Position numbers and translations under genes: made by a program. Of a stretch of 64,000 bases of DNA, positions 2,668 to 21,808 are shown in pieces. Source of the DNA: an uncultured delta proteobacterium. Its GTDB lineage: Bacteria > Desulfobacterota > Desulfobacteria > Desulfobacterales > SpSt-501. Each line of letters opens with the position of its first letter. The stretch's first letter is position 1. The notes beneath the pieces are model-generated. The model was given only the letters and a program-made list of their open reading frames with translations. It did not search any database and was not told where the DNA came from. The DNA is taken from contig CAVQUW010000006.1 of NCBI GenBank assembly GCA_963716785.1, positions 7,810-71,809 on the forward strand, read 5' to 3'.

Positions 2668-5600
2668 GCTCCCCTCCTTTCCGGCTCATCTGTTGGGGGT
2701 CCTGGTGTGGATCCGGGCCCGGGCTGTGGCCCTTGGCCGAATCCCCCCGATGGCTGAGCTTTTCAACGACGAAGAAGCACATCGGTACCAGGAAAATAGC
2801 GATGAAGCTTGCCGCGAGCATGCCGCCGATGACCCCCGTGCCCATCACCTGGCGGGCGACCGCGCCGGCCCCGGAGGCGATGGCGAGCGGGACGCAGCCC
2901 AGGATGAAGGCGAAGCTCGTCATCAGGATCGGCCGCAGCCGCAGCCGCGCCCCTTCCAGGGCGGCGTCCATGACGGACTTGCCCTTTTCGTATTCCACTT
3001 TGGCGAACTCGACGATCAGGATCGCGTTTTTGGCGGCAAGCCCGATCAGCATGATCAAGCCGATCTGCGCGTAGAGGTTGAACTCCATGTGGCGCAGAAA
3101 AATCCCGACGAAGGCGCCCAGGACGGCGATGGGGGTGCCTAAAAGCACGCTGAAAGGCAGCGACCAGCTTTCGTACTGGGCGGCCAGGATCAGGAAGACG
3201 AACAGCAGCGAGAGCGCGAAAATGACCGACACCGGCACCCCCTCGAGGGCCTGCTTTTCCTGGAAGCTCATGCCCAGGTAATCATATCCCATCTCCCGCG
3301 GCATGGTCTGCGCGAACACCTCCTCGAGCGCGCCCATGGCCTGGGCCGAGCTGAACCCCGGCGCGGAGACGACGTTCAACTGGGCCGAACGGTAGAGGTT
3401 GTAGCGCATGGTGAACTCGGGACCGCTGCGCTGCTCGATCGCGGTGACGGCCGAGAGCGGGACGGTGTTCCCGGCCGAGTTTCGCACGTAGAACTGGCCG
3501 AGTTGCTCGGCCTGGGTGCGGTAATCGCCCTCGGCCTGCACGTAGACCTGCCACTGGCGGCCGAAGCGGTTGAAGTAGTTGACGAAGTAGCCGCCCATGA
3601 AGGCCTGCAGGGTGCGGTAGACCTGGTTTAAGTCGACCCCCTGCTTGAGCACCTTGTCGCGGTCCACGTTTACGAAGATCTGCGGCACCGTGGGCAGGAA
3701 GGTCGTGGTCACGCGCGCGATCTCCGGCCGCTTCTTGGCCGCTTCCATGAATTTCTGCGCGTTCTCCCACAAAAACGCGATATCCTTGCCGGCGCGGTCC
3801 TCCAGGATGAAGGTCACCCCGCCGGAGGTGCCGATGCCCGGAATGGCCGGCGGCGAGAACGCGAAGGCCACCCCCTGGGGGATGCCGCCCATGCGCCGGT
3901 TGAGACTCGCCATGATGGCCTCCGTATTTCTCCTCGGGGCTCTTGCGCTCATGCCAGGGCTTGAGCGTGATGAAGAAAAACCCGCTGTAGGTGTTCGTCA
4001 CCCCGGCGAGCATGCTGTAGCCGACCACCGTGGTGCAGTACTGCACCCCGGGGGTCTCCATGATGATTTTCTCGAGCTCCCGGGTGACCTCATCGGTGCG
4101 CTGCAGCGAGGCGGCGTTCGGAAGCTGGACCCCGGCGTAGAGGTACCCCTGGTCCTCCTCCGGCAGAAACCCGCCGGGGACCCGCTTGCCGATCACGCCG
4201 ATGGCGCCGGTCATGATGACGAGCAGGAGCAGGCTGATCACGAACTTGCGGATGAACCAGCCGCAGAGGCCCACGTAGCCGTTGGTGGCCTTGCCGAACA
4301 GGGTGTTGAACCCGCGGTAAAACGCCCCCAGGGGGCCGCGGGCCTTCTTCTTGGGCTTCAGGATGAGGGCGGAGAGCGCCGGGCTCAGCGTCAGCGCGTT
4401 GAAGGCCGAGATGATGACCGAGATGGCGATCGTGACCGCGAACTGCTGGTAGAGCTTGCCGGTGATGCCCGGGATGAAGACGGTCGGCAGGAACACGGCC
4501 GAGAGCACGAGCGCGATGGCGATGACCGGCCCGGAGACCTCCTCCATGGCCTTCAGGGTGGCCTCCTTCGGCGAGAGCCCGTGCTCGATGTGGTGCTCCA
4601 CGGCCTCGACCACCACGATGGCGTCGTCGACGACGAGGCCGATCGCGAGCACAAGCCCCATCAGGGCGATCGTGTTGATCGAAAACCCGAGCAGAGGGAA
4701 CATGGCGAACGTGCCGATGAGCGAAACCGGCACGGCAAGCGCCGGGATCAGGGTCGCGCGCCAGCCCTGCAGGAAGATGAAGACGACGATGATGACGAGC
4801 ACGAGGGCCTCGGCCAGCGTGTACAGGATCTCCTTGATGCCCTCGCGCACGGATTGGGTCGTGTCGAGCGGGATGCTGTATTCCAGGTCCGCGGGAAAGT
4901 TCTTCTTGACCTCCTCCATGAGCCGCGTGACGCCGTCCACGGCCGCGATCGCGTTCGATCCGGGCAGCTGGTAGAGGGCGAGCACCGCGGAGGGCTTGCC
5001 GTTCAACCGGCCGACCATCGCGTAGGTCTGGGAGCCGAGCTCGATGCGCGCGACGTCTTTCAGCCGGACGAGCGAGCCGTCCGGCTCGGCGCGCAGGACG
5101 ATCTGCGCGAATTCTTCGGGCGTCTCGAGGCGGCCCTGCGCGCGAATGGAGTAGGTGTAGTCGACGCCGGGCGGCGCCGGCTCCGCCCCGACCTGGCCGG
5201 CCGGGTTGACCGTGTTCTGCTGCTTGATGGCGTCCACGATCTCCGGCACGGTGATGTTGAGCTTGGCGAGCTGGTCCGGCTTGACCCACAGGCGCATGGC
5301 GTATTGGCCGGCGCCGAAGACGGTGACGCTCGCGATCCCGGGCACACGCGTGAGCTGATCGTTCAGGTTGATGTAGGCGTAGTTGGCGAGAAAGGTCGCG
5401 TCGTAGGTCCCGCCCGGCGAGGAGAGCGCCACCAGCATGAGCGGCGAGGAGGTGGACTTCTTGACCGTGACCCCGTAGTCGCGCACCTCGGAGGGCAGCT
5501 TGGAATCCGCCTGGGATTTGCGTATCTGCGTCAGCACCTGGTCGATGTTGGGGTCGGTCTTGACGTCGAAGTTCACGTAGAGCTTGAGCTCGCCGTTGTT

Positions 5601-5849
5601 GGCGTTGAGCGAGTACATGTAGTTCATGTTGTCGACGCCGCTCATCTCCTGCTCGATGGGGGTGGCCACCGACTGCTCCACGGTCTGGGCGTCGGCGCCG
5701 ACGTAGGTCGTGTTGATGTTGATCTCGGGCGGAACGATGTCCGGGTACTGGGCGATCGGCAGCCCCAGGATGGCGACGGTTCCCACGATGACGAAAATGA
5801 TGGAGATCACGATCGCCACGATCGGCCGGTAGACGAAGAACTTTGCCAT
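2660..5849 (-). CDS. RND multidrug efflux permease (HAE1/AcrB family), one frameshift near 3930
   Basis: [12 protein letters not shown] start, [26 protein letters not shown] and RLRPILMTS. Split between ORFs 3282..5849 and 2660..3952; removing one G restores KYEAI. Confidence 0.92.
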
Positions 5850-5866
5850 GGGAGTTCAACCTTTCG

Positions 5867-5903
5867 CCCCCCCGCTCCCCCTTTTGCAAAGGGGGTTGGG
5901 GGG
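5867..5903. repeat. REP-like palindrome CCCCCCC-GCT-CCCCCTTTT-GC-AAAGGGGG-TT-GGGGGG
   Basis: Inverted repeat visible in the gap between the MFP and RND genes. Confidence 0.55.
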
Positions 5904-5921
5904 ATTTTGAAAGCGCCCCGT

Positions 5922-7053
5922 CTATGACTTCGGCGCGTACGGCTTGGGCGTCACCTTGGCACCGGTGCCGACCTTTTGCGTCCCCTCGGCGACCACCTTC
6001 TCACCGGGTTTGAGCCCCTCGCTGATCACCCACATATCCCCGAAACGGCCGCCGGTTTTCACGGTTCGGATCTTCACCGTGTTGTCGGCCTCCACCACGG
6101 CCACCTGGAAGCTGCCCTGAAGCTCGCCGACGGCGCGCTGGGGTACGAGCAGCGCCCCTTTCTCGGTACGAATCAAGGCCCGCACCTTGGCATATTGGCC
6201 CGGCCGCAGGATGTTCTCGCCGTTGGGGAAAAGGATCGCCACCTTGATGGTCCCGGTCTGGGGGTCGACCTGGCGGTCGGCAAAGGAAAATTCCCCCTTT
6301 TGAGGCCAGGTGCTGCCGTCGGCCAGGATCAGGTCGAAGGTGGTCTTATCGGTTCCCGGGGCCTGCCCCTGCTTGTTCCGCTCGACCGCCTGGAGATACT
6401 CGCGCTCGCTGATGGGGACATAGACCTTGATCGGGTTGACGGTGGAGACGGTGGTCAGCACCTGTGCCTGGGGTGTTCCGACCAGGTCGCCGATCTGGGC
6501 CTTGGCGGCGCCGGCGATGCCGTCGATGGGCGAGATGATCTTCGTGAACCCCAGGTCGAGCTCGGCCCGGCGGACCTGCGCCTGGGCCGCCAGCACCTGG
6601 GCCTCGGCGCTCTGCACGGAGCCGACGGCGTTGTCCTTGTCGCGCTGGCTGACGGCATTCGCCGCCGCCAGCGGCAGGATGCGATTCAAGTTCGCCTGGG
6701 CCGTCTGGAGCACGGCCTTCTGGTTGGCAAGCGCCGGCCCGGACCTCGTCGAGCGTCGCCTGGAAGGGCCGGGGGTCGATCTCGAACATCAGGGTGCCCT
6801 TCTTGACGAATTCGCCCTCCCGGTAGTTCTGCTTGGTGAGATACCCCTGCACCTGGGCGAGAATGGTGGCGTTCACCATGCCGTCCATCGAGGCCACCCA
6901 CTCCTGATAAACCGGTACGTCTTTCTGGACGACCTCGACCACCAGGACCTCGGGCGGCGGCGGTGGTGCGACGGCCTTCTTTTCCTCCGGGCATCCCGCC
7001 AAACCTGCTGCCGCAAGCATAACCGATAAAATATAGAAAAATTTCCCCTTCAC
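5922..7053 (-). CDS. RND efflux periplasmic adaptor (membrane fusion protein), frameshift near 6735
   Basis: Lipobox LAGC and motifs GTLMFEIDPRPFQA, IISPIDG, VDPQTGTIKV, LRPGQY, GLKPGEKVV. Split between ORFs 6346..7053 and 5922..6713. Confidence 0.9.
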
Positions 7054-7084
7054 GTGGCCCCCTTTGCGATCAGGCTTTCAAATG

Positions 7085-7214
7085 ATTACCCCGGCAATTC
7101 AATATGCCGAAACTCGTCATTCCGGCGGCCCCCGGATCAAGTCCGGGAGGAATCCAGGCTGCGCACGGAAGCCGGATCAAGTCCGGCATGGGTGTATGGC
7201 GCTGCCGTTTGATA
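7085..7214 (+). repeat. ~130-bp REP/MITE-like palindromic element (copy A)
   Basis: Core GTCATTCCGGC..CCCGGATCAAGTCCGGGAGGAATCC..GCCGGATCAAGTCCGGCATG aligns along its length with the reverse complement of 29070-29209. Confidence 0.75.
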
Positions 7215-7329
7215 GGACGGAACATGAACGCTTTTTATATGACATCGACGGCGGTTTACAATCTTGTTCATCGTGATTGGAGCCCTTATTTCATCGTTCC
7301 CGGCATCCACCTTGCTCATGGCGATCATG

Positions 7330-7755
7330 TCAGTCGGCCTGCCGATTGGAATAGACGCGTTGCACGGCGTTGATGACGATCGCGGTCGACCATCCGAACA
7401 TGATGATGCCGTTGACGGCTTCGATCGCAGACAGCAGGCGCCGGCTGCCGTCCAGAACCACATCGCCGTATCCCAGGGTAGTGAAGGTGACTGCCGAGAA
7501 GTAGATCGCCTCTTCGACTCCTTCGACAATACCCAATGCCAGGTAGGCGGCGCCCCAGACCAGCACCTCAACTATCGCGACGAGGTACATGGTCAGCACC
7601 ACCTCCCCCACCCTGGAGACACGATTCAGTCGCCATCGCGAACCACCGAGAGTCGCCGGGTGGCGGATGGACCGCAACGACAGGTACATCCCCCCCGCGT
7701 GAACGGCGGTGGTCAGCAGAATCAGGATTGCGCCGATGGCGATGTTCGACAGCAT
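7330..7755 (-). CDS. Small potassium channel family protein (Ion_trans_2)
   Basis: Pore helix and filter YFSAVTFTTLGYGD flanked by hydrophobic helices; 141 aa. Confidence 0.85.
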   Translation of the reverse strand: MLSNIAIGAILILLTTAVHAGGMYLSLRSIRHPATLGGSRWRLNRVSRVGEVVLTMYLVAIVEVLVWGAAYLALGIVEGVEEAIYFSAVTFTTLGYGDVVLDGSRRLLSAIEAVNGIIMFGWSTAIVINAVQRVYSNRQAD

Positions 7756-7799
7756 TGCGCCTCGTCTGATACAGCCAATTTAGGCCCTCACGCATCCCC

Positions 7800-9005
7800 T
7801 CATTCCGCTGTTGAGGCCTCTCTTGCACCCAGTAGCGCCGCGAGCGGGTTCGCGCTGAATCCGTGCGCCAGGATGCTCAAGGTCACCGTGCAGGCCGCGG
7901 TCAGGGCCAGTGTCTGTCCGCCCGGGAGGTGATGCTCCAGAACGATAATGGCGAAGACGACGGTGGCAAGCCCGCGCGGGCCGAACCAACCGAGGAAGAG
8001 TTTGCTGCCCGGTTTCAGACCCGACCCGGCAAGCGACAGGTATGACGGCAACATGCGAACGACGGTCAGGCTGAGTAAGGAATACACCAGAATCGGCCAG
8101 TTGAATTTAAACATGACCTGCCCGACGACTGCCGCTCCGAAAGACATCCAGGTGGCCAGTGACAACGCGTCTCCGGTGCCCTCGGCCGCGCGGAGCAGGT
8201 CATGCTTGTGCTCTTTCGCCAAAGCCCCGAAAAGAATGCCGCCGGTGAAGGAGGCGATGAACCCGCTGCCGCCCAATTCCTGGGCTACGGCAAAGCACAC
8301 AAACGCCAGGGCGACCACGGGGAGCTGCCGCCAGGTTTCGGTGATCCAGTCGCGCTGCGCGCAGCGCTTGAGAACCCACCCGCCGGCCGCCGTCAAACCG
8401 AGACCGACGGCTGCGCCGATGCCGATCTGCTGCGCGACCAGAACCAAGGCCAGCTGAAAACCGCTGCCTTTCATGGTCGCATCGGATGCGAGGGTAAGAA
8501 ACACGAGCAGAATGGGGACGCAGATTCCGTCGTTGAGGCCGCTTTCCATGTTCAAGCCCTCCCGCAATGCTGCCGGAACGGCCGGGTGAGTCACGACGGC
8601 TTTTCCCAAGGCGGCGTCGGTGGGGGCGAGCATGGTCGCAAGAACGGCGAGCTCGAACAGGGCCATACCGGGAAATATCAGGAAACCGAAGCCGAAGCCG
8701 AGCAAAATGGTCAACGGAAGGCCGATCAGCAGCAGCCGTACCGGGAGTTGCCGGTTGATCCTGAGAATGCTCAGGTTCGCGTTGGCCGCATCCGTGAACA
8801 GGACCAGGGAGAGTGTCAATTCGGCCAGTATCCGCAGCAGCTCGCCGTCGACGTGGGGGGTAAAGATTCTCAGCCCGAGCGGACCGCAGACGAGGCCGAA
8901 TCCCATGGCGATGATCGCCCCGCTCAAGGGCGATTTTTCCAGGCGCCCGGCGACGACGCTGTAGAGAAGGACAAACGCCGACAGGATCGCCAAATTTTGA
9001 TACAT
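7800..9005 (-). CDS. Cation:proton antiporter (CPA1/NhaP-like)
   Basis: LAPTDAALG, ESGLNDG and WFGPRGLA motifs with many TM segments; ATG at 9005. Confidence 0.9.
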   Translation of the reverse strand: MYQNLAILSAFVLLYSVVAGRLEKSPLSGAIIAMGFGLVCGPLGLRIFTPHVDGELLRILAELTLSLVLFTDAANANLSILRINRQLPVRLLLIGLPLTILLGFGFGFLIFPGMALFELAVLATMLAPTDAALGKAVVTHPAVPAALREGLNMESGLNDGICVPILLVFLTLASDATMKGSGFQLALVLVAQQIGIGAAVGLGLTAAGGWVLKRCAQRDWITETWRQLPVVALAFVCFAVAQELGGSGFIASFTGGILFGALAKEHKHDLLRAAEGTGDALSLATWMSFGAAVVGQVMFKFNWPILVYSLLSLTVVRMLPSYLSLAGSGLKPGSKLFLGWFGPRGLATVVFAIIVLEHHLPGGQTLALTAACTVTLSILAHGFSANPLAALLGAREASTAE

Positions 9006-9103
9006 GCGCTGCACCTTGCTGTTTCTTAACAAGACCCGCGGCCAGCTCCGCGGGTTCGCGGCCAAGCCGCGCAGAAATATGTCCCCGCGCCGTTGCCGAG
9101 CTC

Positions 9104-9249
9104 ATGGATTCGTAAGAACTCTCTATCGTTGTCACCCCGGCGAATGCCGGGGTCCAGAACGTCCAGAAATAACCGGATTCCTCTCGGACTTGATCCGGGA
9201 TCCGCCGGAATGACAAATCGTGAAGAATTTAATCTTCTTACGAGCTCAT
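9104..9249 (-). repeat. REP/MITE-like element related to copies A and B, with different imperfect terminal inverted repeats
   Basis: Ends ATGGATTCGTAAGAA / TTCTTACGAGCTCAT. Internal GGATTCCTCTCGGACTTGATCCGGGGATCCGCCGGAATGAC is shared with the 7.1 kb and 29.1 kb elements. Confidence 0.7.
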
Positions 9250-9281
9250 CAGTATTGGTGATCGGGCTCTGGCGTTCACGA

Positions 9282-10316
9282 CTACTTCCAGCGGAAAGCA
9301 ATCCCGGCCAAGCCGAGGGCGGCTTCCTGGTTGTAGAAGTCGATGTTGGAGTCGACCGCGGTGTAGGCGCCGGTCACGAAGAAGCGCATCGGCTCGCTGC
9401 CGAACAGCCTCCAGCCCCAGGGGTTCGTGTAGTAAACCGATGCGCTGGCGCCATAGCGGTCATCGTCGCGGGTCTTGCCGTAGACCGGGTTATTCTTGTC
9501 GTACTCCGCCCCACCGACGTACCCGTTGAATACCAGCGTGATCGGGTCGGCGTCGAAGAGATAGGTCAGCTGCAGATCGACCCCGGCGTTCGCCATGGCC
9601 TCGCCGTCAAGGTCTTCGTAGAACACGGCCACACTGGGGACCAGCTTGTGCCGTCCGCCGAACTTCAACTCGTAGTCGGTCGTAAACCGGTGAATGGAAC
9701 CGTTGCGCTCCAGGCGGTCGCGCTGGCCACTGGTGAGGGCCAGCGACTCGCCGCTGCGCTCGCTGCCGACGTCCACCTTCCTCAAGGTGTACTCCAACTC
9801 CAGACCCGTGCCGAAGACCTTGTCCCAGACCAGCTGCCCCCCCATGTTCCGGCGGCTGGTGTCGTCGCGGTTCTGGTTTGTCTCGAAGGGGTCCTTCCAG
9901 ACCCTGACGTTTCCGCTGAACAGCAGGCCGGCCTGGAACACGCCGACGGAGCCGATTCCCTGCTTGACGCCCAGCTGCTGGGCCGTGTCGAAGGACAGCA
10001 GGTCGCCCACTTCGGTGCCCAGAAACAATTCGGTGCGCGAGCCGGCGAAGGTGTAGGCCAGCTTGAAGGGCAGAGTGAAGAACGCCGTCGACTCGGAATC
10101 CGGCTCGTTGTCGACATCTCCGATCTGCTTTTCCGACAGATCGAAGCTCAGGACCTTGGCCACCGTGTTGCTTTTGATGGATAAATACCCGCCTCCGGGC
10201 TGGATATATCCGCTGAATCCGGATTGCTGGGAAATCGGGTCCAATGCCAAAACCGCACCTGACCCTGCACCCATGCATAACGCCACAGCGATTACGACGA
10301 TGGCTTTTTTTAACAT
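9282..10316 (-). CDS. Putative outer-membrane beta-barrel protein (DUF2860-like)
   Basis: Signal peptide, SGFSGYI N-terminus, alternating amphipathic strands and C-terminal GIAFRWK. Family assignment is from recalled similarity. Confidence 0.6.
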   Translation of the reverse strand: MLKKAIVVIAVALCMGAGSGAVLALDPISQQSGFSGYIQPGGGYLSIKSNTVAKVLSFDLSEKQIGDVDNEPDSESTAFFTLPFKLAYTFAGSRTELFLGTEVGDLLSFDTAQQLGVKQGIGSVGVFQAGLLFSGNVRVWKDPFETNQNRDDTSRRNMGGQLVWDKVFGTGLELEYTLRKVDVGSERSGESLALTSGQRDRLERNGSIHRFTTDYELKFGGRHKLVPSVAVFYEDLDGEAMANAGVDLQLTYLFDADPITLVFNGYVGGAEYDKNNPVYGKTRDDDRYGASASVYYTNPWGWRLFGSEPMRFFVTGAYTAVDSNIDFYNQEAALGLAGIAFRWK

Positions 10317-10424
10317 CTTCTCCTCCTTTTTTTTTGGACTGGTTTCAGAATCCCGGGTCACGCCTGCTCGGCAAGGCGCCGGGCGATTCGAAAGCCCTGC
10401 AACCTTTTATTGAAATGACTGCCC

Positions 10425-10988
10425 CTATTTCCCCGGCGTGATTTTGGTGATCTTGTTCCCCTGGATCCCCAGTCCGGCCATGAGCCCCTTCTGGTCGAAG
10501 AAGAAGGCGTATACGTCGGCCTGCGCCGTGGTCGTGGTCCGGCTCGTGGCGGCGCCCGCATCCCCGATGACGATATTGGGCCCCACGCCGAGCTCCCAGC
10601 CGTCGCTGCGGTCGAGGTATTCGCGCGCGGAGTCGTTCATCAGAAACAGGGCGAACCCGTACTTCTGGACCCCGGCCTGCAGGCCGTAAGAGAGGGCGAC
10701 CGTGTTGTAATAACCGACGGCTTCCCCGCCCTTCAGGAGGGCGCCCTCGCCATACTGCCCGCCGACAATAAAGCCGGCTTTGGCAATGTCCGGAAAGACC
10801 AGGATGGCCGTGGCCTTTTGCCCCAACTCCTTGGCCGCGTTCGATTTGGCATAGAGTTTCTGTAAAGCGCCCTTGGCGTCGCGGCTGATTTCCGCCGCCG
10901 ATCCCGCCCGAACCTGATCCGCGCTCATGAGCGCGCACACCGCAAACGCCAGCAAGCCCAATATAATAGTCGAACGCCGGTAGCTCAT
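10425..10988 (-). CDS. Ysc84/SYLF lipid-binding domain secreted protein
   Basis: AILVFPDIAKAGFIVGGQYGEG, SYGLQAGVQ and GLMAGLGIQGNKI; signal peptide. Confidence 0.85.
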   Translation of the reverse strand: MSYRRSTIILGLLAFAVCALMSADQVRAGSAAEISRDAKGALQKLYAKSNAAKELGQKATAILVFPDIAKAGFIVGGQYGEGALLKGGEAVGYYNTVALSYGLQAGVQKYGFALFLMNDSAREYLDRSDGWELGVGPNIVIGDAGAATSRTTTTAQADVYAFFFDQKGLMAGLGIQGNKITKITPGK

Positions 10989-11012
10989 TGTCGTGTCCTC
11001 CCTTGGCTTGAA

Positions 11013-11507
11013 TTACTGGGCCGGTTTCATCAGCGGAATCTCGGCCGCGAGATCATAGTTCAGCGCCGCGTTGATCTTGTTCTCGATCTGGTAGTAGCGC
11101 ACCACCTTGATCTGCGGCAAAACCTTGCGGAACTTCGGCAGATAGGTCTGGCGCAGCTTCGGCCCGAGAACCTCGATTGCCATGGATTCGTCCATGAGCT
11201 TCTTCGCCTTGGCGCCGTTCATTTTATCATAGGCATCCGCGTAATCCCGGATCAATTTCGCGGTGCGTGCACGCAGCAGGAACAGCTCGTGCTGATACTG
11301 GTCGTAGACGGGCCAGAAGGCTTTCGCCTCGGCCTCGGTCAGCTGCAGGTTCGCCGCCACCAGAAGCTTCTTGTCGGCGCGGAGCTTCTCCCTCAGGATC
11401 TGCATGTTGTCCGCCGGTTTGTCCTGAGCCGAAGCCGCCAGCCCGCCCAGCGCAGAGAAGCCGACCACGAGCGCCGCCAATAGAACAATCCCCTTCCTTT
11501 TGATCAT
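11013..11507 (-). CDS. Secreted alpha-helical hypothetical protein (LTEAEAKAFWPVY family)
   Basis: Signal peptide ending AASAQ, AGGAG RBS before ATG 11507 (alternative start 11525), LQLTEAEAKAFWPVYDQYQ motif. Confidence 0.7.
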   Translation of the reverse strand: MIKRKGIVLLAALVVGFSALGGLAASAQDKPADNMQILREKLRADKKLLVAANLQLTEAEAKAFWPVYDQYQHELFLLRARTAKLIRDYADAYDKMNGAKAKKLMDESMAIEVLGPKLRQTYLPKFRKVLPQIKVVRYYQIENKINAALNYDLAAEIPLMKPAQ

Positions 11508-11521
11508 GTGAATTCTCCTTT

Positions 11522-13005
11522 TCATTGTTTGAGCTCCTCGATCACCCGCGCGGCGCCGGGGTGCAGGGGCACCGTCAGCCCCAACAAGGCATTGCCGGCC
11601 GAAATCTGAGCGGCCTGCACGCTGCCGAGCGCGACGAAGTCCTGCCCGCGCGAATATAAGGCCCGGGTGAGGCGCTCCACCTCGTTCCCGGTGAGGTCGG
11701 GATTGACGAGCAGCAGCGCAGCCACAGCGGCCGTCGGCGTGCGCTCCAGCTGCCCCTCTAAGTTCCGGCCGGCAAACTGTATCCGAAAACCCCCGGCGCC
11801 GCAACGGACAGGCGCTCCACCGCCGCCGCCTCCAGCGGAACGAACCGCAGCGGAAAAGCGGCTGCTGCCGAGCGCAGGCTGTCGGCGGGCGCCCCGATCA
11901 CCTGCAGGAAGGCATCGATCTGCCGGTCGCGCAACGCCAGCAGCGAATCGCTCAGGTTCAGCTCGGCCGCCTGCGCCAAATCGGCGGCGCGGATATCGTG
12001 GGCCGCGAGCACGGCCAGCGACGTGATGCGCGAGGCCGACCCCGGGACGCCGATCGAGACCCGCTTGCCGCGCAGATCGGCCATGGATCGGATTTCGCCG
12101 TCGGCCCGGGCCACGACATGCACCGGTTCCGGATAGAGGCTGCCCGCGGCGGAGATCTTGAGATCCGGCCCGCGGCCGGCAAAGGGCCCCGCGCCCGCGT
12201 AGGCCAGGTGCGCCACGTCCCCCTGGGCCAGGGCGAGCGACACCTTGCTGTCGCGCAGCAGCACCAGGTTCTCCTCGCCGCCGGCGGTCACCAGCGCCAA
12301 GATCCGCACGCGCCCGGTGGCGGAGGCGGCGGAGAAGGCCTTGGCCAGGCGCAGGTACTGCCCGTTTTCCGGTCCCGCCGCGACGGCGTATCCGCCGCTC
12401 AAACGCGCGAGCCGCCCGCGGATCGCCGTCTGGGCCTGGGAGAGCTCCTCTTCCGTGACTTCGAGGGCAACGGGCCTGACGTCGGGAGGCGTGGATTCGA
12501 GCACCGTGGCGATGGACTTGAACAACTGCTCGACCACGGGGCGTTGGGTGCGGGTGTCGAAAGCCGTGGCGGCCGCCGGCTCGAACCCCTCGGCGGCCAC
12601 CGGGGCCCAGCGTTCGCCGTCGCGCCGATAGATCGCCGTGCCGTGGGCGCGCAGGACGTCGCCCGCCTTATTGCCGCCGCTGGCGATGCCCACCAGCCCC
12701 TTCGGACCCGTGCCCAGGGCCGTCACCAAGCCGGCCACACCCGGCGACTCCCAGCCCCCGAAATCGTAATCCTTCACGAGCGCAAGATCGGCATCGAAAT
12801 AGATCAGGCAGCGTTCCTCACCCGCGGGGGCTTTGGCGTCCGATGCCGAACCGCGGCGGCTGAGCGAATCGATCTTCAAGACGCCTGCAGGTATGCTCTT
12901 TTCGAGACGCACTGCAACGTCCCGGCCCAGCGTTTCGGCGTCCGGCCCCTGGCTACAACCGGCGGCGATCAGCGCCACCGCCAACACGATCGTGCGCCAC
13001 ATCAT
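11522..13005 (-). CDS. TAXI-family TRAP solute-binding lipoprotein with long N-terminal extension, frameshift near 11759
   Basis: Lipobox IAAGC. TAXI motifs AAGPENGQY, TAGGEENL, LYPEPVHVVAR, DLRGKRVSIGVPGS, LPAGT(Y) and VPLHPGA. Restoring one base gives T-Y-E-G-Q and joins ORF 11522..11725. Confidence 0.8.
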
Positions 13006-14213
13006 CAGCCTCCCAGATAGCGCAGGGTCAGAAACCCTGTCAGAATGACGGCATTCGCGAGGTCGACGAAAAACGCGCCGGCGAGCGGCACGATCAGAAA
13101 CGAGGTCGGGGCCGGACCGTATTTCTCCGTCAACGCCTTCATGTTCGCCATCGCCGTGGCGGTGGACCCCATGCAGAACCCGATGAAGGCAGCCGACGCC
13201 ACCGAGGCCTCGTAATCCTTCCCCATGAAGGGAAAACAGGCCCAGACCGCATAGGCGGCGATGAAGACCCCCTGCAGCGCAACGAGGGCCAGGATCGGCC
13301 CGGCCGACCGGGCCACGTCGGCCAGATCGAGCGTCATCATCGTCATGACCAGGAAAAGCGACAGGCAGATGCCGGCAATCAGGTCCGAGGAGCGGTCTTC
13401 GAAACGCACCCCGCAGAAAGGCAGCAGGTTGCGCAGGGCTACCCCCAGGACCATGCACCACAGAAACTGCGGGATCATGATGGGCGCGCCTGCGAACCGG
13501 TCGGCCAACCAGCCGCCCGCGATCACCGCTACAAGAATTCCCGCCAGCGAGCCCAAGGTAACGACCGGACGGATGCTCGAGGCCGGCCGCCCCGGAGCTC
13601 GACTTTCCGTCTCGCCTTCCGCCCCCCGGCCGGCGCCGCCCGCGGCGCCCAGCTTGTTGCGCACGATCAGGAACTGGGCCACCGGCCCCCCCAGGATTCC
13701 ACCGAGGATCAGCCCGATCGTGGCCGCGGTCATGGTCAGCTCCAGCACCGACTGCAGGTTGTTCACGTCGGCGAATCTCTCGGCATATGCGGCACCGGTG
13801 CCGTGGCCGCCCACCAGGGTGATCGATCCCGCCAGGACGCCGAAAAGGGGGTGCAGGTCGAGGCCCCAGGCGCCGAGGATCCCGGCGAAGTTCTGCAGGA
13901 CGATGAATGGGATCAGGACGGCCAGGAAGACGGCCAGCGCCTTGCCGCCCTTTTTGAGCTGCCCCAGGTCCGCCGTCATGCCGGTGCCGGCGAAGAACAT
14001 CAGGAGCAAAAGCGGCTTGAGCGTGGTGTCGATCGACAGGCGGAAGCCGGCAAAGGCGGCGAGCAGCGAGGCGGCCGCCGCGAACAGCATCCCGCCCGTT
14101 ATCGGGTCGGGGATGTTGTAGTTCGACAGCAGCCGTACGCGACCGTTGACGAATGTGCCCAAGAGCAGCACGAGAATAGCCAGCAACAATGACATGACGG
14201 TGTTCAACGCCAT
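13005..14213 (-). CDS. gltS: Sodium/glutamate symporter (ESS family)
   Basis: YNIPDPITGG, GSITLVGGHGTGAAY, GFCMGSTATAMANM and FLIVPLAGAFFVD are GltS hallmarks. Confidence 0.9.
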   Translation of the reverse strand: MALNTVMSLLLAILVLLLGTFVNGRVRLLSNYNIPDPITGGMLFAAAASLLAAFAGFRLSIDTTLKPLLLLMFFAGTGMTADLGQLKKGGKALAVFLAVLIPFIVLQNFAGILGAWGLDLHPLFGVLAGSITLVGGHGTGAAYAERFADVNNLQSVLELTMTAATIGLILGGILGGPVAQFLIVRNKLGAAGGAGRGAEGETESRAPGRPASSIRPVVTLGSLAGILVAVIAGGWLADRFAGAPIMIPQFLWCMVLGVALRNLLPFCGVRFEDRSSDLIAGICLSLFLVMTMMTLDLADVARSAGPILALVALQGVFIAAYAVWACFPFMGKDYEASVASAAFIGFCMGSTATAMANMKALTEKYGPAPTSFLIVPLAGAFFVDLANAVILTGFLTLRYLGG

Positions 14214-14261
14214 AGTCCATCTCCGCCTGCGAAGAATTAAACTCGGATCAAGATGCTTTCT

Positions 14262-15961
14262 TCACCCGGCCAGCACCATCGCAAAATAGCCCCCGACCGT
14301 CAAGAGCACGCCGGAGACGGCGTAGGCCACCGGAAATCCGATCCAGGGCACCGAACTGTCGATCTCCTTGGCCGCCTCGCGGCAGGGCCCCGAATGCGAG
14401 CGGGCGCCGGCCACACCGCCCATCAGCACCGCGGGGTTGATCTTGAACACGTGAAAGCCGATGGCCCAGACCACGAACGGCGGCACGCTGCACGCGACGA
14501 ACCCGACGATGAAGATCTTGAGCGCGATCGGGCCGGTGATCTGCGCCAGGAGCGAGTTGCCGGCGTTGATGCCGACGATGCAGACGAAGACCACCAGCCC
14601 CAGGTCCTCGAGGATGTTGCGGGCCGCGTTCGGCGTGTTGCCGAAAAAACGCAGGCGCGACGGATCGAGGAGACGATCACCCCCGAGACGAGCAGCCCGC
14701 CGGCGTTGCCCAGGCCGACCTTGGAGCCGAAGGCGGGAAACTCGATCGCGCCGATCAGAAAGCCGAGGACCATGCCGACCGCCAGCGTCAGGAGGTCGGT
14801 GGCGGTGCTGGGCCGGGCGATCGCACCGAGCGTTTCGCCGAGCTTGGAGACGGCATCCTTCAGCCCGGCCACGAACAGCACGTCCATGCGCTCGAGTTTG
14901 GTATCGAGACTCGGTGGAAAGGGCACCCCGCCGCGTTCCATGCGCGTCACCTGGAGTTGCCCCGCGATCTCGGTCTGCTGGAACACTTTCAGCTCGCGCC
15001 CCACGACCTCTTTGTTGGTCACGAGGATCTCTGCCTGGTCGAGAGGGATGTTGAGTGCCTGGGGGTCATGCATTTCCGGCCCGATGAGCCCCATCTTGTC
15101 GGTCAGCGATTCGGTTTTGCCGCCGAGGGCGATCACGTCCCCGGTGACGAAGGCGAGGCCCGGGTCCGCGCCGAGCAGTTCTTTTCCGCGGCGCACATTG
15201 AGAATACGGTACTCCGGGTTCTCGCGGCGAAAGTCCTGGATGCTCTTCCCGACCCACTGCGCGTTCTCGAGCCGGTAGGCCCGCAGCCCGAACGGCCGGT
15301 AGCCGGTGATCCCGGCGTCGTCGGCACTTTTAACGCCGTGCTCGGCCTCGTATTGGCCGGCGGCGGTGCGGCCGTCCACCCCCCACCAGCGCGGCAGGTA
15401 CTTGCAGATCAGGATGATGCCCACCGTGCCCCAGATGTAGGAGATGCCGTAGGAAAGCGCGATCATCGAGGAGACCTGCTCGACGGAGCCGCCCTCGGCA
15501 AGCTTGAGCACCCCCTGGGTCACCGCCTGCTCGGAAGAGCCGATGGCGGCCGACATGGTCTGCGAACCCGCGAGCAACCCCCCCGCGGCCCCCTGCGGCA
15601 GGTCGAACATCCGGACGCCTAAAACGACGAGCACCAGGCCGATTGCGCAGGATACGAAAGCCAGGAAGGTGAACTTCAACCCGTCGCCCTTCAGGCTGTT
15701 GATGAAGGACGGCCCCACCCGCAGGCCCACGCCGTACATGAAGAGGTAGTAGAACAGGCTCTTGGCGAAGTTGTCGAGCGCGAGTTTGACCCCGTAGGTC
15801 GAGGCCCAGACCGAGAGCGCGCAGCCGACCACGATGGAGGCCGCCACCATGCCCAGTCCGTAGCCCTTGACCGCAAAGCGGCCGATCCAGACCGCGAGCC
15901 CCACCGTCACGAACAGCAGGATGAAAGGGTTCGCCGCCAGAAACTTGAATATCGCTTCCAT
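14262..15961 (-). CDS. AspT/YidE/YbjL-family amino acid antiporter with TrkA-C domains, frameshift near 14660
   Basis: FMYGVGLRVGPSF, GLLAGSQTMSAAIG, two central TrkA-C-like repeats, LGNAGGLLVSG and GFPVAYAVSGVLLT. Confidence 0.85.
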
Positions 15962-15989
15962 CGGATTGCCTCCTTGAGCTGTCGGGTGT

Positions 15990-18783
15990 TTACCTGCCCT
16001 TGCGCTTGCCTTTCGCCGCGGCCGGTTTGACCGCCCCCGGCTTTTCGCCCAGGGCTGCCGGGCGGATGAGCTTGAGGCCCAGGCCGGCGTCGTAGCCGTG
16101 GATCTCCTTCACGTCGAGCTTGCGCATGAACTCGATGGTGTCGGCTTTGATCACCTGGCCGGGCACCATGATCGGGAAGCCCGGCGGGTAGGGGATCACG
16201 AAGTTGGCCGAGACCAGCGGCGGCCCGGTCTTGAGCCGCTCGTCGATCTCCGGGCTCGACGAGCTGCAGGTGCTCGCAGTCCTCCTCGTCGTAGGCCATG
16301 AAGAAGGCCGTGCGCATGTCGCCCTCGAGGGTCGCGCCCTTCGGGTCGTCGCGGAACCGGTCGTGGAAGCGGCTGAAGTTCGGCAGGTCGGGCACGTCCT
16401 CCATCAGCGACTTGACGCGCGCCGCGAAAGCGCTCCGCGCTTCCTCGCCGCCCTCTGCGAGCCGCGCCTCGATCCCCTTGGAAATTTCGACCAGCACCTC
16501 GCAGCAGGTTGGCGACGTCGCTGCGGGTGTTGTTGATGTTGGTCTGCAGCAGGATGCGAGTTGCGCGAGGTCTTGTTGAGCTGGATCTCGTACTCGGCGG
16601 CCAGCAGGTTCTTGAACTGCGTGCCGTCGAAGCCGGCCGTGCCGCAGACCAGCGTCAGGCGCGTCGGGTCCAGCACGAACTCGTCCTCGCGGAAGGCCTT
16701 GAGCGTGCCCGCCCAGGTCATGCCCGGCTCCAGGAAGTCCTTGAAGCCCGACTGCCGGAACTCGGCCGGGATCATCTCCTCGGCCGTGAGGACCCGGAAG
16801 TATTTCGAGATCAGCGGATGGCTGTTCACGCCGCGGCGGATCTCGATCGCCAGCTCGATGGCGCGCATCACCAGATCGTAGCCCTCCAGTTCCATCTGCC
16901 GCCGGGCGACGTCGAGCGAGGCGATGATCTGCAGGTTGGGCGAGGTCGAGGCGTGGGTGAACACCGCCTCGTTGAACGGCTGCTCGTGCATGGAGGTAGT
17001 CCTCGTCGCCCACCAGCGACCATCGACCCCTGGCGCAGGGAGGACATCGACTTGTGCGTCGAGTTGGTCTGGTAGACGCGCAGCTTGGCCTTGCGCGGGT
17101 CCGGCACGAGCCGCGTCTCGAGCAGGCGCTTGTCCTTCGGGTCGAGGTCTTCGCCGAGCTTCTTTTCCTGGTCGAGGTAGCGTTCGAGGTAGGCCGGGTC
17201 GGCGAAGGCCTGCTTCAAGATTGGCGCGCGCGCCCATGGCCGTGCGCGGGCGGTAGAGCCAGGAGAAACGCGCGAAGCCGAACCAGGCCTCGTCCCAGAG
17301 GAAGACCAGGTCCGGCTTGATCGCCAGGCACTCCTCCATCACGCGCCGCGTGTCGTACATGTGCCCGTCGAAGGTGACGTTGGTGAGCGCCAGCATGCGC
17401 ACGCGGTCGAGCCGCCCGTCGGCCTTCAGATCGAGCAGCGCCTTCTTGATGCGTGCGCAGCGGGACGCTGCCGTACATCGAGTACGCTGTCAGCGGGAAG
17501 GCTTCGACGTAATAGGGCTGGGCCCCGGCCAACACCATGCCGTAGTGGTGGGACTTGTGGCAGTTGCGGTCGACGATGACGATGTCGCCCGGCCGGCAAA
17601 GGGCCTGGTAGACCATCTTGTTGGAGGTCGAGGTGCCGTTGGTGACGAAGAACACGTGGTCGGCGCCGAAGGCGCGCGCGGCGGCGTCCTGGGCCTTCTT
17701 GATGTTGCCGGTGGGCTCGAGCAGGCTGTCGAGCCCGCCGGTGGTGGCCGAGGACTCCGCCAGAAAGAGGGTCGGGCCGTAGAACTCGCCCATGTCGCGG
17801 ATCCAGTCCGACTTGAAGATGGACTTGCCGCGCGCAATCGGCAGGGCGTGAAAGGTGCCGACCGGCTTCTGTGCGTATTTCTTGAGGTTGTCGAAGAAGG
17901 GCGTCTCGTAGCGCTCGGCCACCCCGGCCAGGATCGACAGGTGCAGTTCGAGAGGTTCTTCGACCTCGTAGAACACGCGACGCAGCCCGGCCGCCGCCGG
18001 GTCGGAGACGATGTCCTCGGGCCGGCTGTCGTCGAGCAGGAAGACGTCGAGCTCGGGCCGGATGGCCTTGATGGCCCGGGTCAGCATCAGGCCGTAATCC
18101 CCCGGCGGAAGGCTCTGCGGGTCGACCTGCAGCCACTGGGCCAACACGCCGCGCAAGAGCGGTGCGTCGTGCGCGGAGGGGTACGGGAAGCCTTCGTAAA
18201 TCACCACCGACTGCAGGCCCGCGTTCAGGATCACGCCCAGGATGGCATCTTCGAAGTTGCCGACGAACACGGGCTCGTAGACGAACTCGTCCTGGGCCCG
18301 GCGCAGCTTGCGCATCTGCTGCACGTGTGCCGGCCAGCGCGACGGCGGCGTCGGCACGACCATCAGCACCTCGAAGTAGGGTCGGCCGCCGGCCTCGCCC
18401 GCCGCCGGGGGCATCGGCCGCACCGCATCGGAAACATCCTCCTCGGGTTCCCACTCGCCCGGGTCGCGGCGGTAGCTGCGCGACATGAGCGCCATCGAGA
18501 CGCGCTGCACCAGCCGCGCCAAGCCCGCGGCGTCATCCACGGTCAGGCGCTCCCGCAAAACCGCAAGCAGGCGCGCGCCCGGGTATGCATGGAACCCTTC
18601 GAGCGGGGTCAGCTCTTCCAGCGCGGAAGCGCACTGGGACCGGAGCGCCGGGGCGTCCGGGGTCCCGATCCTGGCGGCCCAGACCTGCGCGGTCTTGTTC
18701 AACACGCGCCAGCGGTCTGATCGCGCCGCCACGGTCGAGAAAAAATGATCGATCTGTAATCCGGGAGTGGTTTTCGCAGCCAT
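15990..18783 (-). CDS. Orn/Lys/Arg decarboxylase family PLP enzyme, long form with N-terminal extension; several frameshifts
   Basis: FFVTNGTSTSNK, IVDRNCHKSHH, WDEAWFGF, STHKS (PLP lysine), HASTSPN, LDPTRLT and IPYPPGFP, spread over overlapping ORFs 17215..18783, 16404..17402, 16868..17218, 15907..17013 and 15990..16199. Confidence 0.88.
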
Positions 18784-18826
18784 GGGGTTCTCCTCATGAT
18801 TGGGTGTGGTACTACTCAGGTGTTTA

Positions 18827-18854
18827 GGCTGAAGGCTGAAGGCTGAAGGCTAAA
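18827..18854 (+). repeat. Heptamer tandem repeat (GGCTGAA)x3 + GGCTAAA
   Basis: Seen directly. The same unit occurs at 55909-56005. Confidence 0.8.
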
Positions 18855-18929
18855 AAACATATCGCGCTGAACGAATAAAGCCATTCAATTCAAAACCTTC
18901 TCCGTTTCTACGACCTTGAGCACGACCGG

Positions 18930-19400
18930 TCATTCGTCTGCATCGATCGGCCGATCACGGCTCGTCCCGCTCTTTTCGTGCCGCGCCCGATGCTCACGCG
19001 CTTCACACCGGTGGTGGATCGCGCAGCGGATCAGGTCCATCAGGGCTTGATCCATAAATGGCTTTCGCAGGAAACCGGCGGCTCCGGCCTTCAAGGCCGA
19101 TTCCTCGACACCCTCCTCCTCGTAGGCCGTCATGAAGATGACCGGCAGGTCCGATCCGATCCGGACCATGTGGCCCTGGACCTCCAGCCCGCTCATGCCC
19201 GGCATCTTCAAGTCGATCACGGCGCAGTCAGCTTCGGGCGACCGGCCCAGGGCCGACAGGAACTCCTCGCCGGATGAGAACGTCCGGACACGCATGCCCC
19301 AGGAATTCAGCAGGCGCTTCAGCCCCCGGGTCACGGACGGATCATCGTCGACGACGCTAATCATTGGCGGGGTATTCGTCAATCGGCGGCACCTGCGCAT
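18930..19400 (-). CDS. Single-domain response regulator (receiver only)
   Basis: ISVVDDD, DLKMPGMSG, PVIFMTA and FLRKPF. Start is uncertain (19364-19400). Confidence 0.88.
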   Translation of the reverse strand: MRRCRRLTNTPPMISVVDDDPSVTRGLKRLLNSWGMRVRTFSSGEEFLSALGRSPEADCAVIDLKMPGMSGLEVQGHMVRIGSDLPVIFMTAYEEEGVEESALKAGAAGFLRKPFMDQALMDLIRCAIHHRCEAREHRARHEKSGTSRDRPIDADE

Positions 19401-19518
19401 CGGGCATCGAGCCAGACGATTGCATCCTTATTTCACCGGAAAATCACTCCACCGGCGCTTCACCGATAGAGGGGGGCTTTTGGTCATCCCACTATCAGAA
19501 AACCCCGGCCGCTCGCAA

Positions 19519-19534
19519 TAAGACCTTGGTCCTA
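19519..19534. promoter_or_regulatory. Palindromic regulator site TAAGACCTTGGTCCTA
   Basis: Matches 21742-21757 at 15/16 and lies upstream of the receiver/decarboxylase unit. Confidence 0.65.
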
Positions 19535-19588
19535 TGATGGGTGAGAAGGATTGATTCATCATTGAGCCATCGTTGATTGGCCAGCCTT

Positions 19589-20671
19589 TCATGGCCCTTG
19601 CAGGTCGGGCGACTCGATTTCAGCGATTTCCTCATCGACCCATGCCGAGAGAAGCTTGTGGGCTACGGCGAGCACGACCGGACCCACGAAGATGCCGATG
19701 AGGCCGAAGGCGATCAGCCCGCCGACCACACCGACGAAAATGAGCAGCAAGGGAAGATCGGCGCCCTTCCTGATCAGGATCGGGCGTAGGAAGTTGTCCA
19801 TGGTTCCGACCACCAGGGTCCAGAACAGCAGAAACGTCCCCCAACCGGTCTGGCCGCTCCAATATAGCCAGGCCACCGAGGGTACCAGCACGAGCAGGGG
19901 GCCGATCTGGGCGATCGCCAGCATGAACATCGCGGCGGTGAAAATTCCGGCAAATGGAACGCCGGCGACAAGCAGCCCGATACCGCCCAGAATCGATTGG
20001 GCCAGGGCCGTCACCACGATGCCGAGCGCGACCCCGCGCACGGCCTGCCCGGCCAAGCGGATGGAGCCCTCCCCGCGCGCGCCGGCCAGCCGCCGCCCGA
20101 AGCGGTTGATCCAGGAGGCCGCTTGCTCGCCCCGGGCGTAAAGCATCGCCGCGAAGCCTACCGTCATCAGGAATTGCAGGACCAGAAACCCGAAACCACC
20201 CACTTCCGTGGCAAACCACCCGATGGCTTTACCGCCGTATGGGGCCAGTTTTTTAAGAAAATCCTGAATCCCCGCCACCGCGACCTTCTCCCATGCCGCC
20301 ACCAGATCGCCACCGAAGAACGGCAGACCCGCGAGCCACGCCGGGGGCGGCGGGACTTCGAGGGTCGGCACCGATTTCACCCAGACGGCGATCCGGTCGG
20401 CGTTCGACACGATGGTGCCGATGGCCAGCCACAGAGGCACCACCAGGAACCAGAGCAGGGCCACCGTCATCACCGCCACCGCAAGCGACCGGCGGCCCCA
20501 AAGCCGGCCCTGGATGGCAGTCATCAACGGCCAGGTCGCGATCACGATCATCACCGCCCAGACCGCGGCTCCCAGGAAGGGCCGCAGGACCCAGAGGGAC
20601 GTCGCGATCAGTGCCCCGATAAAGAGCACCGCCAGAAAGGTGCGGGTGAGGTCGCGCTGAATATCGGCCAT
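19589..20671 (-). CDS. ydiK: AI-2E family transporter YdiK
   Basis: DLTRTFLAVLFI, IATWP, VRGVALGIVVTALAQ, DNFLRPILIRKGADLP and GLIGIFVGPV. Confidence 0.85.
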   Translation of the reverse strand: MADIQRDLTRTFLAVLFIGALIATSLWVLRPFLGAAVWAVMIVIATWPLMTAIQGRLWGRRSLAVAVMTVALLWFLVVPLWLAIGTIVSNADRIAVWVKSVPTLEVPPPPAWLAGLPFFGGDLVAAWEKVAVAGIQDFLKKLAPYGGKAIGWFATEVGGFGFLVLQFLMTVGFAAMLYARGEQAASWINRFGRRLAGARGEGSIRLAGQAVRGVALGIVVTALAQSILGGIGLLVAGVPFAGIFTAAMFMLAIAQIGPLLVLVPSVAWLYWSGQTGWGTFLLFWTLVVGTMDNFLRPILIRKGADLPLLLIFVGVVGGLIAFGLIGIFVGPVVLAVAHKLLSAWVDEEIAEIESPDLQGP

Positions 20672-20685
20672 GGGGATCCCCCGGT

Positions 20686-21510
20686 CTATTTCATCTGCGG
20701 CAGCCAGGCCGGCTTGACGAACCATTTCACTTTCAGCTCATCCATGTATCCGGCCTTCTCCAGGCCGCTCAGGAAGTTCCCCAGCCAGTTGAGCAGGTGC
20801 GGGTCGCCCTTGGGCACGGCGATCCCGATGGGCTCATAGGTGATCGGGGCCGAAACGGACACCAGGCCCGCCGCCGGGTTGCGGAGCACCGCGACGGCGC
20901 AGATGGGGAAATCGGCGAACATGGCATCGGCCCGGCCGTCGACCACGATTTGAATGGCCTCGTTCTGGGTGGCGGCCGTGAGCACCTTCGCCTGGGGCGC
21001 GCCCTTGCGGATCACCGCTTCGCTGGTGGAGTCCTTCAGGACGACGAAGGTGAATTGCGGGCTGTTGAGGTCGAAAACCCCCTTGGCCTGGGCGAGGCTG
21101 CTGCGCTTGGTGAGAAGCGCCTTGCCCGAAGTGAAGTATGGCCCCACGAACGCCACCTTCAGGTTGCGCTCCGGGGTCATGGTCATGTTGGAGACGATCA
21201 TGTCGATGCGGCCGGCATCGAGGGCCGGCAGCAGACCCCCGAAATCGATCCGCTGCAGATTCAGCTTGACACCCATGGCCTCGGCGACCATCTGGGCCAC
21301 ATCGACATCCATGCCGATGATTTTATCGTCTTTGGTGAGAAGGTTCATGGGCGGCATGTCTCCGGAAACACCCACGCGGAGCTCGCCCCGCGCGATGATC
21401 TGGTCCATGACCGGCGATGAAGACGCTTTCACCGTCTGGCCCATCTCGGCGCACCCCGCCAAAAGGCAGGCCACCATCAACACGATCAGAATTTTCTTTG
21501 CTTCTTTCAC
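20686..21510 (-). CDS. Amino-acid-binding periplasmic lipoprotein (SBP family 3), orphan
   Basis: GTG at 21510 with GAGGAG RBS, lipobox LLAGC, GELRVGV, GMDVD, MTMTPER and EPIGIAVPKGD. Confidence 0.85.
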   Translation of the reverse strand: MKEAKKILIVLMVACLLAGCAEMGQTVKASSSPVMDQIIARGELRVGVSGDMPPMNLLTKDDKIIGMDVDVAQMVAEAMGVKLNLQRIDFGGLLPALDAGRIDMIVSNMTMTPERNLKVAFVGPYFTSGKALLTKRSSLAQAKGVFDLNSPQFTFVVLKDSTSEAVIRKGAPQAKVLTAATQNEAIQIVVDGRADAMFADFPICAVAVLRNPAAGLVSVSAPITYEPIGIAVPKGDPHLLNWLGNFLSGLEKAGYMDELKVKWFVKPAWLPQMK

Positions 21511-21758: not shown

Positions 21759-21808
21759 ATTCCAGCAGTGAGGGCCATGCGGCATGCTCAAGCTGCGGCC
21801 GGGCGCGG

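Follow-up and report, generated by a model that had tools for sequence, protein, structure and literature searches.

A gltS-TAXI gene pair of the TAXI-GltS class in a probably horizontally acquired island of an uncultured delta proteobacterium

Which membrane protein works together with a TAXI-type substrate-binding protein (SBP) when its gene lies directly behind gltS, the gene of a Na+/glutamate symporter, and no TRAP permease gene is near? This question is raised by a stretch of 64,000 nucleotides (the window) from contig CAVQUW010000006.1 (C6) of assembly GCA_963716785.1, an uncultured delta proteobacterium. A preliminary description of this DNA had proposed that GltS takes the place of a DctQM fusion as the membrane partner of the TAXI protein, giving a high-affinity glutamate importer, and had considered such a binding-protein-dependent GltS a candidate for a new transporter. 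We find GltS as the partner supported by the conservation of the pair in 77 of 79 loci, by two carrier genomes in which the gltS-linked TAXI is the only one, and by the fact that the six fused permeases of this genome each have a TAXI gene of their own. The novelty does not stand: a TAXI-GltS class was already proposed, with binding data, for BP0402/BP0403 of Bordetella pertussis (Jaques et al., 2025, Commun Biol 8:1201, PMC12344293; all statements on this paper refer to its accessible part). The window pair belongs to this published class, and the transporter design is thus not new. Our preferred explanation, in which we have good confidence, is that the pair is a member of the TAXI-GltS binding-protein-dependent secondary transporters, that it was acquired horizontally within an island, and that an interruption of the TAXI frame most probably reflects an error of the assembly. 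In the corresponding mechanism, a lipid-anchored TAXI protein of about 494 aa, composed of an N-terminal alpha/beta domain, a helical hairpin and a glutamate-binding SBP domain, would be made in step with GltS by translational coupling and would hand over its substrate to GltS. Horizontal transfer would have brought in the pair, which makes up the distal half of a decarboxylase-AAE-gltS-TAXI island.

The gltS gene (13005..14213, reverse strand) is intact and encodes a protein of 402 aa of the ESS family, matching Pfam Glt_symporter PF03616 (E 6e-102) over profile positions 2-368 of 368 and the NCBIfam gltS equivalog model TIGR00210 with 367 bits against a cut-off of 310.75. It is 41-65% identical to the gltS products of 30 related loci. 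The gltS stop (TGA, 13007-13005) and the TAXI start (ATG, 13005-13003) have one base in common in the sequence TGATG (13003..13007, reverse strand), which confirms by direct reading the overlap noted earlier, and a GGAGG is situated within the last gltS codons, a few bases upstream of the TAXI start.

The TAXI gene on the same strand was initially taken for a single open reading frame (ORF) at 11522-13005. It is instead one gene in two frames, because the frame that begins at 13005 stops at 11758 and continues elsewhere; the frameshifts in this gene and in both upstream genes had been overlooked. The first 415 codons (11758..13005) end at a premature TAG (11760-11758) and comprise a putative signal peptide with Cys17, an N-terminal alpha/beta domain, a helical hairpin and the first three quarters of the binding domain, residues 209-415 matching positions 2-213 of 289 of NMT1_3 (E 9e-37). 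The last 78 codons of the binding domain follow in the other frame (11522..11757, with TGA at 11524-11522), match NMT1_3 positions 213-287 of 289 (E 1e-10), and agree in translation with the C-terminus of the closest relative, P0003. Read through the break, the protein has about 494 aa. Its hydrophobic N-terminus ends in IAAGC, providing Cys17 as the putative lipobox cysteine, and the region of about 190 residues that follows has no Pfam model match up to the start of the NMT1_3 domain at residue 209.

This elongated protein and its position behind gltS are widely conserved. A database search returned 306 TAXI homologues at E 0.001 or better; among the 120 of these 306 matches that were listed, most have 480-520 aa and are covered in the N-terminal region as well. 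The two best are full length and 82 and 81% identical, the first being P0003 with 507 aa. In an alignment of 28 TAXI sequences Cys17 is invariant (28/28) and the N-terminal region is highly conserved. One genome per species was then scanned for elongated TAXI, which yielded 79 loci from Burkholderiaceae, Alcaligenaceae, Comamonadaceae, Sphaerotilaceae, Rhodocyclaceae, Reyranellaceae, Xanthobacteraceae and metagenome-assembled genomes (MAGs); 20 TAXI orthologues come from Alcaligenaceae, the family of Bordetella. A gltS gene, located by tblastn with the window GltS, immediately precedes TAXI on the same strand in 77 of the 79, so the search for conserved gltS-TAXI adjacency that had been suggested as a check turned out in favor of the pairing. 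One exception (L040) is a contig that begins at the TAXI gene; the other (L078) is weighed below. The TAXI start codon lies between -4 and +4 nt from the gltS stop in all 54 evaluable loci (54 of the 79, since the search for the lipobox Cys motif failed in 23 and two are without gltS). Clustering of ORFs showed that gltS and TAXI are the sole real gene families common to most of the 79 loci, the next real neighbor family being present in at most 14, all of Cupriavidus. The gltS-TAXI pair forms a self-contained unit of two genes; a conserved third component is lacking. Three MAGs labelled Planctomycetota, Pseudomonas and Enterobacteriaceae (L037, L065 and L089, respectively) carry pairs of the Burkholderiales type, a placement due to either transfer or mis-binning. 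A metagenome scan for the 82% relatives gave three loci only, at 53% identity.

Does a TRAP permease remain as a hidden partner? The absence of a TRAP 4TM/12TM fusion gene from the window, already recorded in the preliminary description, extends to the whole contig: there are 30 TRAP_fused/DctM-like matches in this genome, none of them on C6. Six TRAP_fused genes exceed the cut-off (on C12, C36, C8, C25, C3 and C19), and each is adjoined by its own TAXI gene. The conventional TAXI-TRAP arrangement, with TAXI beside a fused permease, is thus found in six pairs on other contigs and not at this locus, and a cognate DctQM elsewhere, which would speak against GltS as the partner, is not apparent among these permeases, each being accompanied by a TAXI of its own. 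The window TAXI could nevertheless be an orphan SBP that feeds one of these fused permeases and stands beside gltS through a common control of glutamate genes. Orphan TRAP SBPs are indeed known (PMC12344293), and the six fused genes would offer a target; yet, besides the TAXI genes adjoining them, the tie of the elongated TAXI to gltS in 77 of 79 loci argues against it, as do N-terminal and helical domains specific to the elongated-TAXI clade. In addition, TRAP_fused over the cut-off is missing in three of five carrier genomes tested, i.e., Cupriavidus sp. H19C3 (G041), Ralstonia pickettii RAL3 (G042) and Roseateles violae (G044), and in the first two the gltS-linked TAXI is the sole TRAP_TAXI match over the cut-off, which argues strongly against a hidden DctQM partner. 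We therefore regard an orphan SBP as extremely improbable.

The similarity to the published class extends to the architecture and the ligand residues of the protein. BP0403 is a 503-aa lipoprotein with an N-terminal alpha/beta domain (residues 20-139) of PilO-like fold, a helical dimerization domain and a TAXI SBP domain (208-503); it is dimeric, the substitution L201R in the helical domain makes it monomeric, and it binds L-glutamate with a dissociation constant of 180 nM via Y219 and Q263 (PMC12344293). In the window protein Tyr217 and Gln261, 44 residues apart and invariant in 28 of the 28 sequences, have the same spacing as Y219 and Q263, their equivalence being suggested by the numbering, and Leu199 takes the position of the dimer-interface residue L201. 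Gln261 aligns with a Gln of VcGluP (PDB 8s4j) and Tyr217 with a Tyr of 1us4. An AlphaFold2 model was made of the 82% identical relative P0003 (mean predicted local distance difference test, pLDDT, 83.9; predicted template modelling score, pTM, 0.62). Behind a signal helix it has an alpha-beta-beta-alpha-beta-beta domain (23-135), which a low-confidence linker connects to a helical hairpin (157-204); the SBP domain (206-490) comes last. In a Foldseek comparison the SBP part of the model fits the glutamate-bound TAXI structures 8u79, 9ibo, 1us4 and 8s4j with target-normalized template modelling scores of 0.82-0.83. Judged by this model, the three-domain build of the BP0403 type is kept in the window TAXI.

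A predicted complex of GltS with TAXI residues 18-415, the structure prediction proposed in the preliminary description, scored 0.57 (runs 0.58, 0.56 and 0.57) against 0.00 for the best of three controls, with at least 96% contact agreement between runs and a partner pLDDT of at least 70. The contact is thus predicted, at the grade of 'weak support' and not beyond it. Of 157 solved complexes, 116 attained the mark that it passed, as did 2 of 215 mismatched pairs; at scores of 0.60 or less the passes comprise only 18 of the 157 solved complexes, and both mismatches, and these benchmark counts hold roughly here, custom alignments having been used. Alternatively, the lipoprotein could bind glutamate and act as a regulator, gate or stabilizer of GltS, or as a sensor, with no donation of substrate. 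E. coli GltS functions without any binding protein, and the extra N-terminal domain has no known role, its need being called unclear by the authors (PMC12344293). We consider such a regulatory role very unlikely, however, given that the ligand residues of TAXI proteins that deliver glutamate are preserved in the SBP domain, that natural TAXI-GltS fusions have been reported (PMC12344293) and that the stop/start coupling fits a stoichiometric partner.

Is the binding protein intact in this organism? The break is situated at 11758..11759, where one base is missing compared to close relatives. Contigs from four public runs (X1-X4) were placed on window positions 11400-14300. In both X3 and X4 the sole covering contig has an extra base behind 11758 (depth 35.2 of 35.2 and 6.93 of 6.93, respectively), the X1 contig ends at 11758 and X2 is without cover at that site. 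The extra base restores LPAGTYEGQ in one frame by completing the Tyr codon, matching the full-length P0003 and P0004, and the X3 and X4 relatives with this intact frame are 94-97% identical. The assembly itself is a MAG of 52 contigs, estimated to be 69.9% complete. In it rpoB (C8:121496-125552) and gyrA (C44:122666-125054) are each divided over two frames, dsrA, present over the cut-off in a profile search, lies in three pieces (C33:51907-53120), a native AcrB gene in the window (2663-5849) is split between frames, and so are three of the six TRAP_fused genes. Since essential and native genes are split in this way, the assembly carries many one-base errors, and the completeness estimate of 70% may be an underestimate owing to the same errors. 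A word search of public sequencing runs found none that contains half of the words of this stretch.

An alternative to an assembly error is that the cluster decays, i.e., that after its acquisition the island is in the course of being lost, leaving no working TAXI-GltS transporter here. The traces of decay would be the frameshifts within about 7.3 kb, of which TAXI and the AAE gene have one each and the decarboxylase gene at least six. The island was, moreover, not found in 26 genomes of the same genus, which indicates that it is dispensable for the genus. Against this, frameshifts occur throughout the assembly in genes that cannot be dead (rpoB, gyrA and dsrA) as well as in AcrB and half of the TRAP_fused genes, gltS is intact, and the close relatives in two runs have an intact TAXI frame. 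Decay is therefore unlikely in our view. Because the frameshifted genes named above include essential ones and the X3 and X4 relatives carry the missing base, the break in TAXI is probably an assembly error, and this copy is probably intact in the cell.

Several points weigh against a working TAXI-GltS transporter as we propose it. First, the assembly shows an interrupted TAXI gene and, in the two island genes upstream, no fewer than seven additional frameshifts, so that the system may be dead in this organism. Second, a locus of Variovorax saccharolyticus (L078) has no gltS within 7 kb. Third, the six fused TAXI-type permeases of this genome are in principle usable by an orphan SBP. Fourth, the predicted complex is a weak pass obtained for a 1:1 assembly with a C-terminally cut SBP, compared to a published model of 2:2. 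Fifth, orthology with BP0403 rests on the architecture, the residue spacing and the Alcaligenaceae orthologues, with no Bordetella among the 79 loci, and the authors of the Bordetella study themselves state that TAXI-GltS transport coupling 'needs to be experimentally verified' (PMC12344293). As to L078, its TAXI relative matches from residue 21, and it is the sole locus with full flanks that is without gltS.

The gltS-TAXI pair was likely acquired by horizontal transfer, as part of an island of about 7.5 kb (11510..18930) with the genes for a decarboxylase, an AAE transporter, GltS and TAXI. A DNA search of the 26 same-genus genomes found matches at 70-90% to window positions 1-11457 and 19020-20000. 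For the interval 11458-19019 the matches listed contain a single 71% match to the AAE gene, on another contig of one of these genomes (G022), beside a response-regulator paralogue. Neither the Glt_symporter family nor the decarboxylase was found in any of the 26 same-genus genomes, and among the matches listed for 40 relatives of the genus and order there is no TAXI match upstream of residue 197 and no full-length orthologue. On the downstream side, a native gene for a secreted protein of 164 aa (11016-11507, reverse strand; weak Metal_resist/Spy-like match, E 0.003) starts 14 nt past the TAXI stop, from which it follows that the island was inserted directly before that gene. A repeat search of 11200-19200 found no direct or inverted repeats of note flanking the island, and its GC content of 0.63-0.71 is not distinct from that of the flanks. 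The nearest TAXI relatives are proteobacterial. In a quick IQ-TREE tree of 76 rows (L078 being too short, and L089, L112 and L115 offering no closed ORF) the window has a deep branch with a position that the tree does not resolve, hence we do not name a donor lineage. Elsewhere in the window, a gene for a 444-aa protein (20689-22020, reverse strand) with SBP_bac_3 in its second half and 210 unmatched N-terminal residues shares 37 nt with the beginning of an AI-2E family transporter gene (19592-20725); this could be a further case of a binding protein beside a membrane protein of non-ABC type.

The proximal half of the island consists of two genes on the same strand. The AAE-family (AspT/YidE/YbjL) transporter gene (14262..15961, reverse strand; about 566 codons) ends about 50 nt upstream of gltS, and its product has the Pfam domains Asp-Al_Ex and TrkA_C. 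It carries one frameshift near 14650: compared to intact 566-aa relatives by tblastn, residues 1-443 lie in one frame and 435-565 in another. We rejected an identity as AspT for this gene, as its relative in L085 remains with 379.5 bits below the cut-off (546.95) of the Asp/Ala antiporter equivalog TIGR03802 and no partner aspartate 4-decarboxylase (asp_4_decarbox) over the cut-off was found in this 70% complete genome; membership of the AAE family stands. The decarboxylase gene (15990..18783, reverse strand; about 930 codons) is of the long-form Orn/Lys/Arg family of the Rv2531c type according to Pfam OKR_DC_1 and tblastn. Against intact relatives of 952 and 917 aa it falls into at least five frame pieces and a garbled stretch around the pyridoxal-phosphate lysine region. 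Its intact 952-aa relative in L043 matches PDB 9n0n/9n0o (Rv2531c) over residues 52-911 (E 5e-222) and is by sequence a member of the long-form KOR family (Rv2531c subfamily). Rv2531c of Mycobacterium tuberculosis is an L-glutamate decarboxylase and not a Lys/Orn/Arg enzyme (Thai et al., 2026, PMC13506015, accessible part). Since the decarboxylase is of the Rv2531c type and the gltS-TAXI pair is linked to glutamate, all four island genes plausibly deal with glutamate.

The link to the adjacent decarboxylase/antiporter module, also made in the preliminary description, thus gains support from the type of the decarboxylase and from the recurrence of the same gene order. The decarboxylase and AAE genes precede gltS-TAXI on the same strand in 4 of the 79 loci (L043, L085, L091 and L112). 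L104 has the order AAE-porin-gltS-TAXI on a contig that ends where the decarboxylase would be, L086 carries both genes upstream on the opposite strand, and in L092 the decarboxylase lies downstream together with a 30% AAE paralogue. An outer-membrane porin gene of the OprD or Porin_4 family separates AAE from gltS in L091 (4289-5656), L112 (4499-5587) and L104 (1690-2934); the window and L043 have none at this place. The rows linked to the decarboxylase are spread over the TAXI tree and require five changes, a number that 3 of 500 shuffles attained. We also asked how the two upstream genes occur by themselves. The long decarboxylase is present in 8 of 400 sampled genomes of the class of Cupriavidus sp. 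H19C3, and an AAE gene lies within 1.5 kb at one of these eight loci, which is without gltS-TAXI within 18 kb. The notion that AAE always stands beside the long decarboxylase was accordingly rejected; the modules combine in some lineages and are not obligate partners. Locus L127 (G063:C22:336000-354000) has the decarboxylase and AAE genes and, after them, a second AAE paralogue of 30% identity, and no gltS-TAXI.

It is possible, albeit rather doubtful, that the four genes form one functional, mobile module for glutamate uptake, decarboxylation and export. If so, TAXI and GltS would scavenge glutamate, the Rv2531c-type enzyme would convert it to gamma-aminobutyric acid (GABA), and the AAE protein would act as a glutamate/GABA exchanger or a GABA exporter, glutamate/GABA then being a new substrate pair for the AAE family. 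With the porin of some relatives included, the system could span the envelope and serve acid resistance, proton-motive force or the production of GABA; it would have been exchanged between Alpha- and Betaproteobacteria and have reached a sulfate reducer as well.

In summary, our survey adds comparative support to TAXI-GltS, by the adjacency across the loci, by the self-contained nature of the unit and by two genomes with a sole TAXI and no fused permease, and it indicates that the pair can move between phyla within a larger island. What is not in print is that the pair recurs downstream of genes for an Rv2531c-type decarboxylase and an AAE transporter. This placement links two discoveries of 2025-2026, provides independent support from context for glutamate as the substrate of both TAXI-GltS and the decarboxylase, and offers a testable function for an uncharacterized AAE branch. 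The four-gene module is described in the accessible parts of neither PMC12344293 nor PMC13506015, in which neither system is mentioned by the paper on the other. A literature search found nothing on TAXI-GltS, BP0403 or elongated TAXI beyond PMC12344293, its preprint and a citing paper, and nothing that joins Rv2531c with GltS, TAXI or AspT.

Compared to BP0402/BP0403, the window pair has gltS directly upstream with overlapping stop and start, the same Tyr/Gln spacing and no TRAP membrane gene nearby. It differs in the overlap, which is one base (TGATG) instead of the 3 bp reported for BP0403 and the end of gltS (BP0402), in its lineage, a dsrA-bearing MAG for which our searches of 26 genus relatives found no such pair, and in the TAXI frame being broken in the assembly. 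A further difference is its position behind a decarboxylase and an AAE transporter gene, neither of which appears in the accessible part of PMC12344293, where 'decarboxylase' and 'antiporter' have zero occurrences. With the conventional TAXI-TRAP system VcGluP of Vibrio cholerae, which has a fused membrane part (PDB 8s4j), it shares the SBP fold and glutamate as the likely ligand; the window system has an extra N-terminal region of 190 aa, a lipid anchor and an ESS partner, and lacks a fused 4TM/12TM permease. The gltS-TAXI adjacency has been noted in other bacteria as well, and TAXI-GltS fusions in Lachnospiraceae combine the same two modules in one polypeptide with a TAXI domain of conventional size (PMC12344293), whereas the window has two genes and an elongated lipoprotein, the fusions being compared here by their description. 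The stand-alone GltS of E. coli belongs to the same family and matches the same gltS equivalog model, and needs no binding protein (PMC12344293).

In the case of the decarboxylase, the island gene adjoins transporter genes, whereas no transporter context is named for Rv2531c in the accessible part of PMC13506015. The intact relative in L043 keeps H405, K406, K570, R576, T606 and N731 of Rv2531c, with Lys in place of R718. The window pieces retain the motifs DRNCHKSHHYG, HASTSPN and NKTS, so that those of K406 and T606 are seen, while the R576 region is garbled by the frameshifts. Pairs of a decarboxylase with a precursor/product exchanger exist, e.g., AspD-AspT and GadB-GadC. Similar to these, the island has a decarboxylase gene followed by a gene of an exchanger family, in this case the AAE family to which AspT belongs, and it differs from them in that its decarboxylase is of another family.

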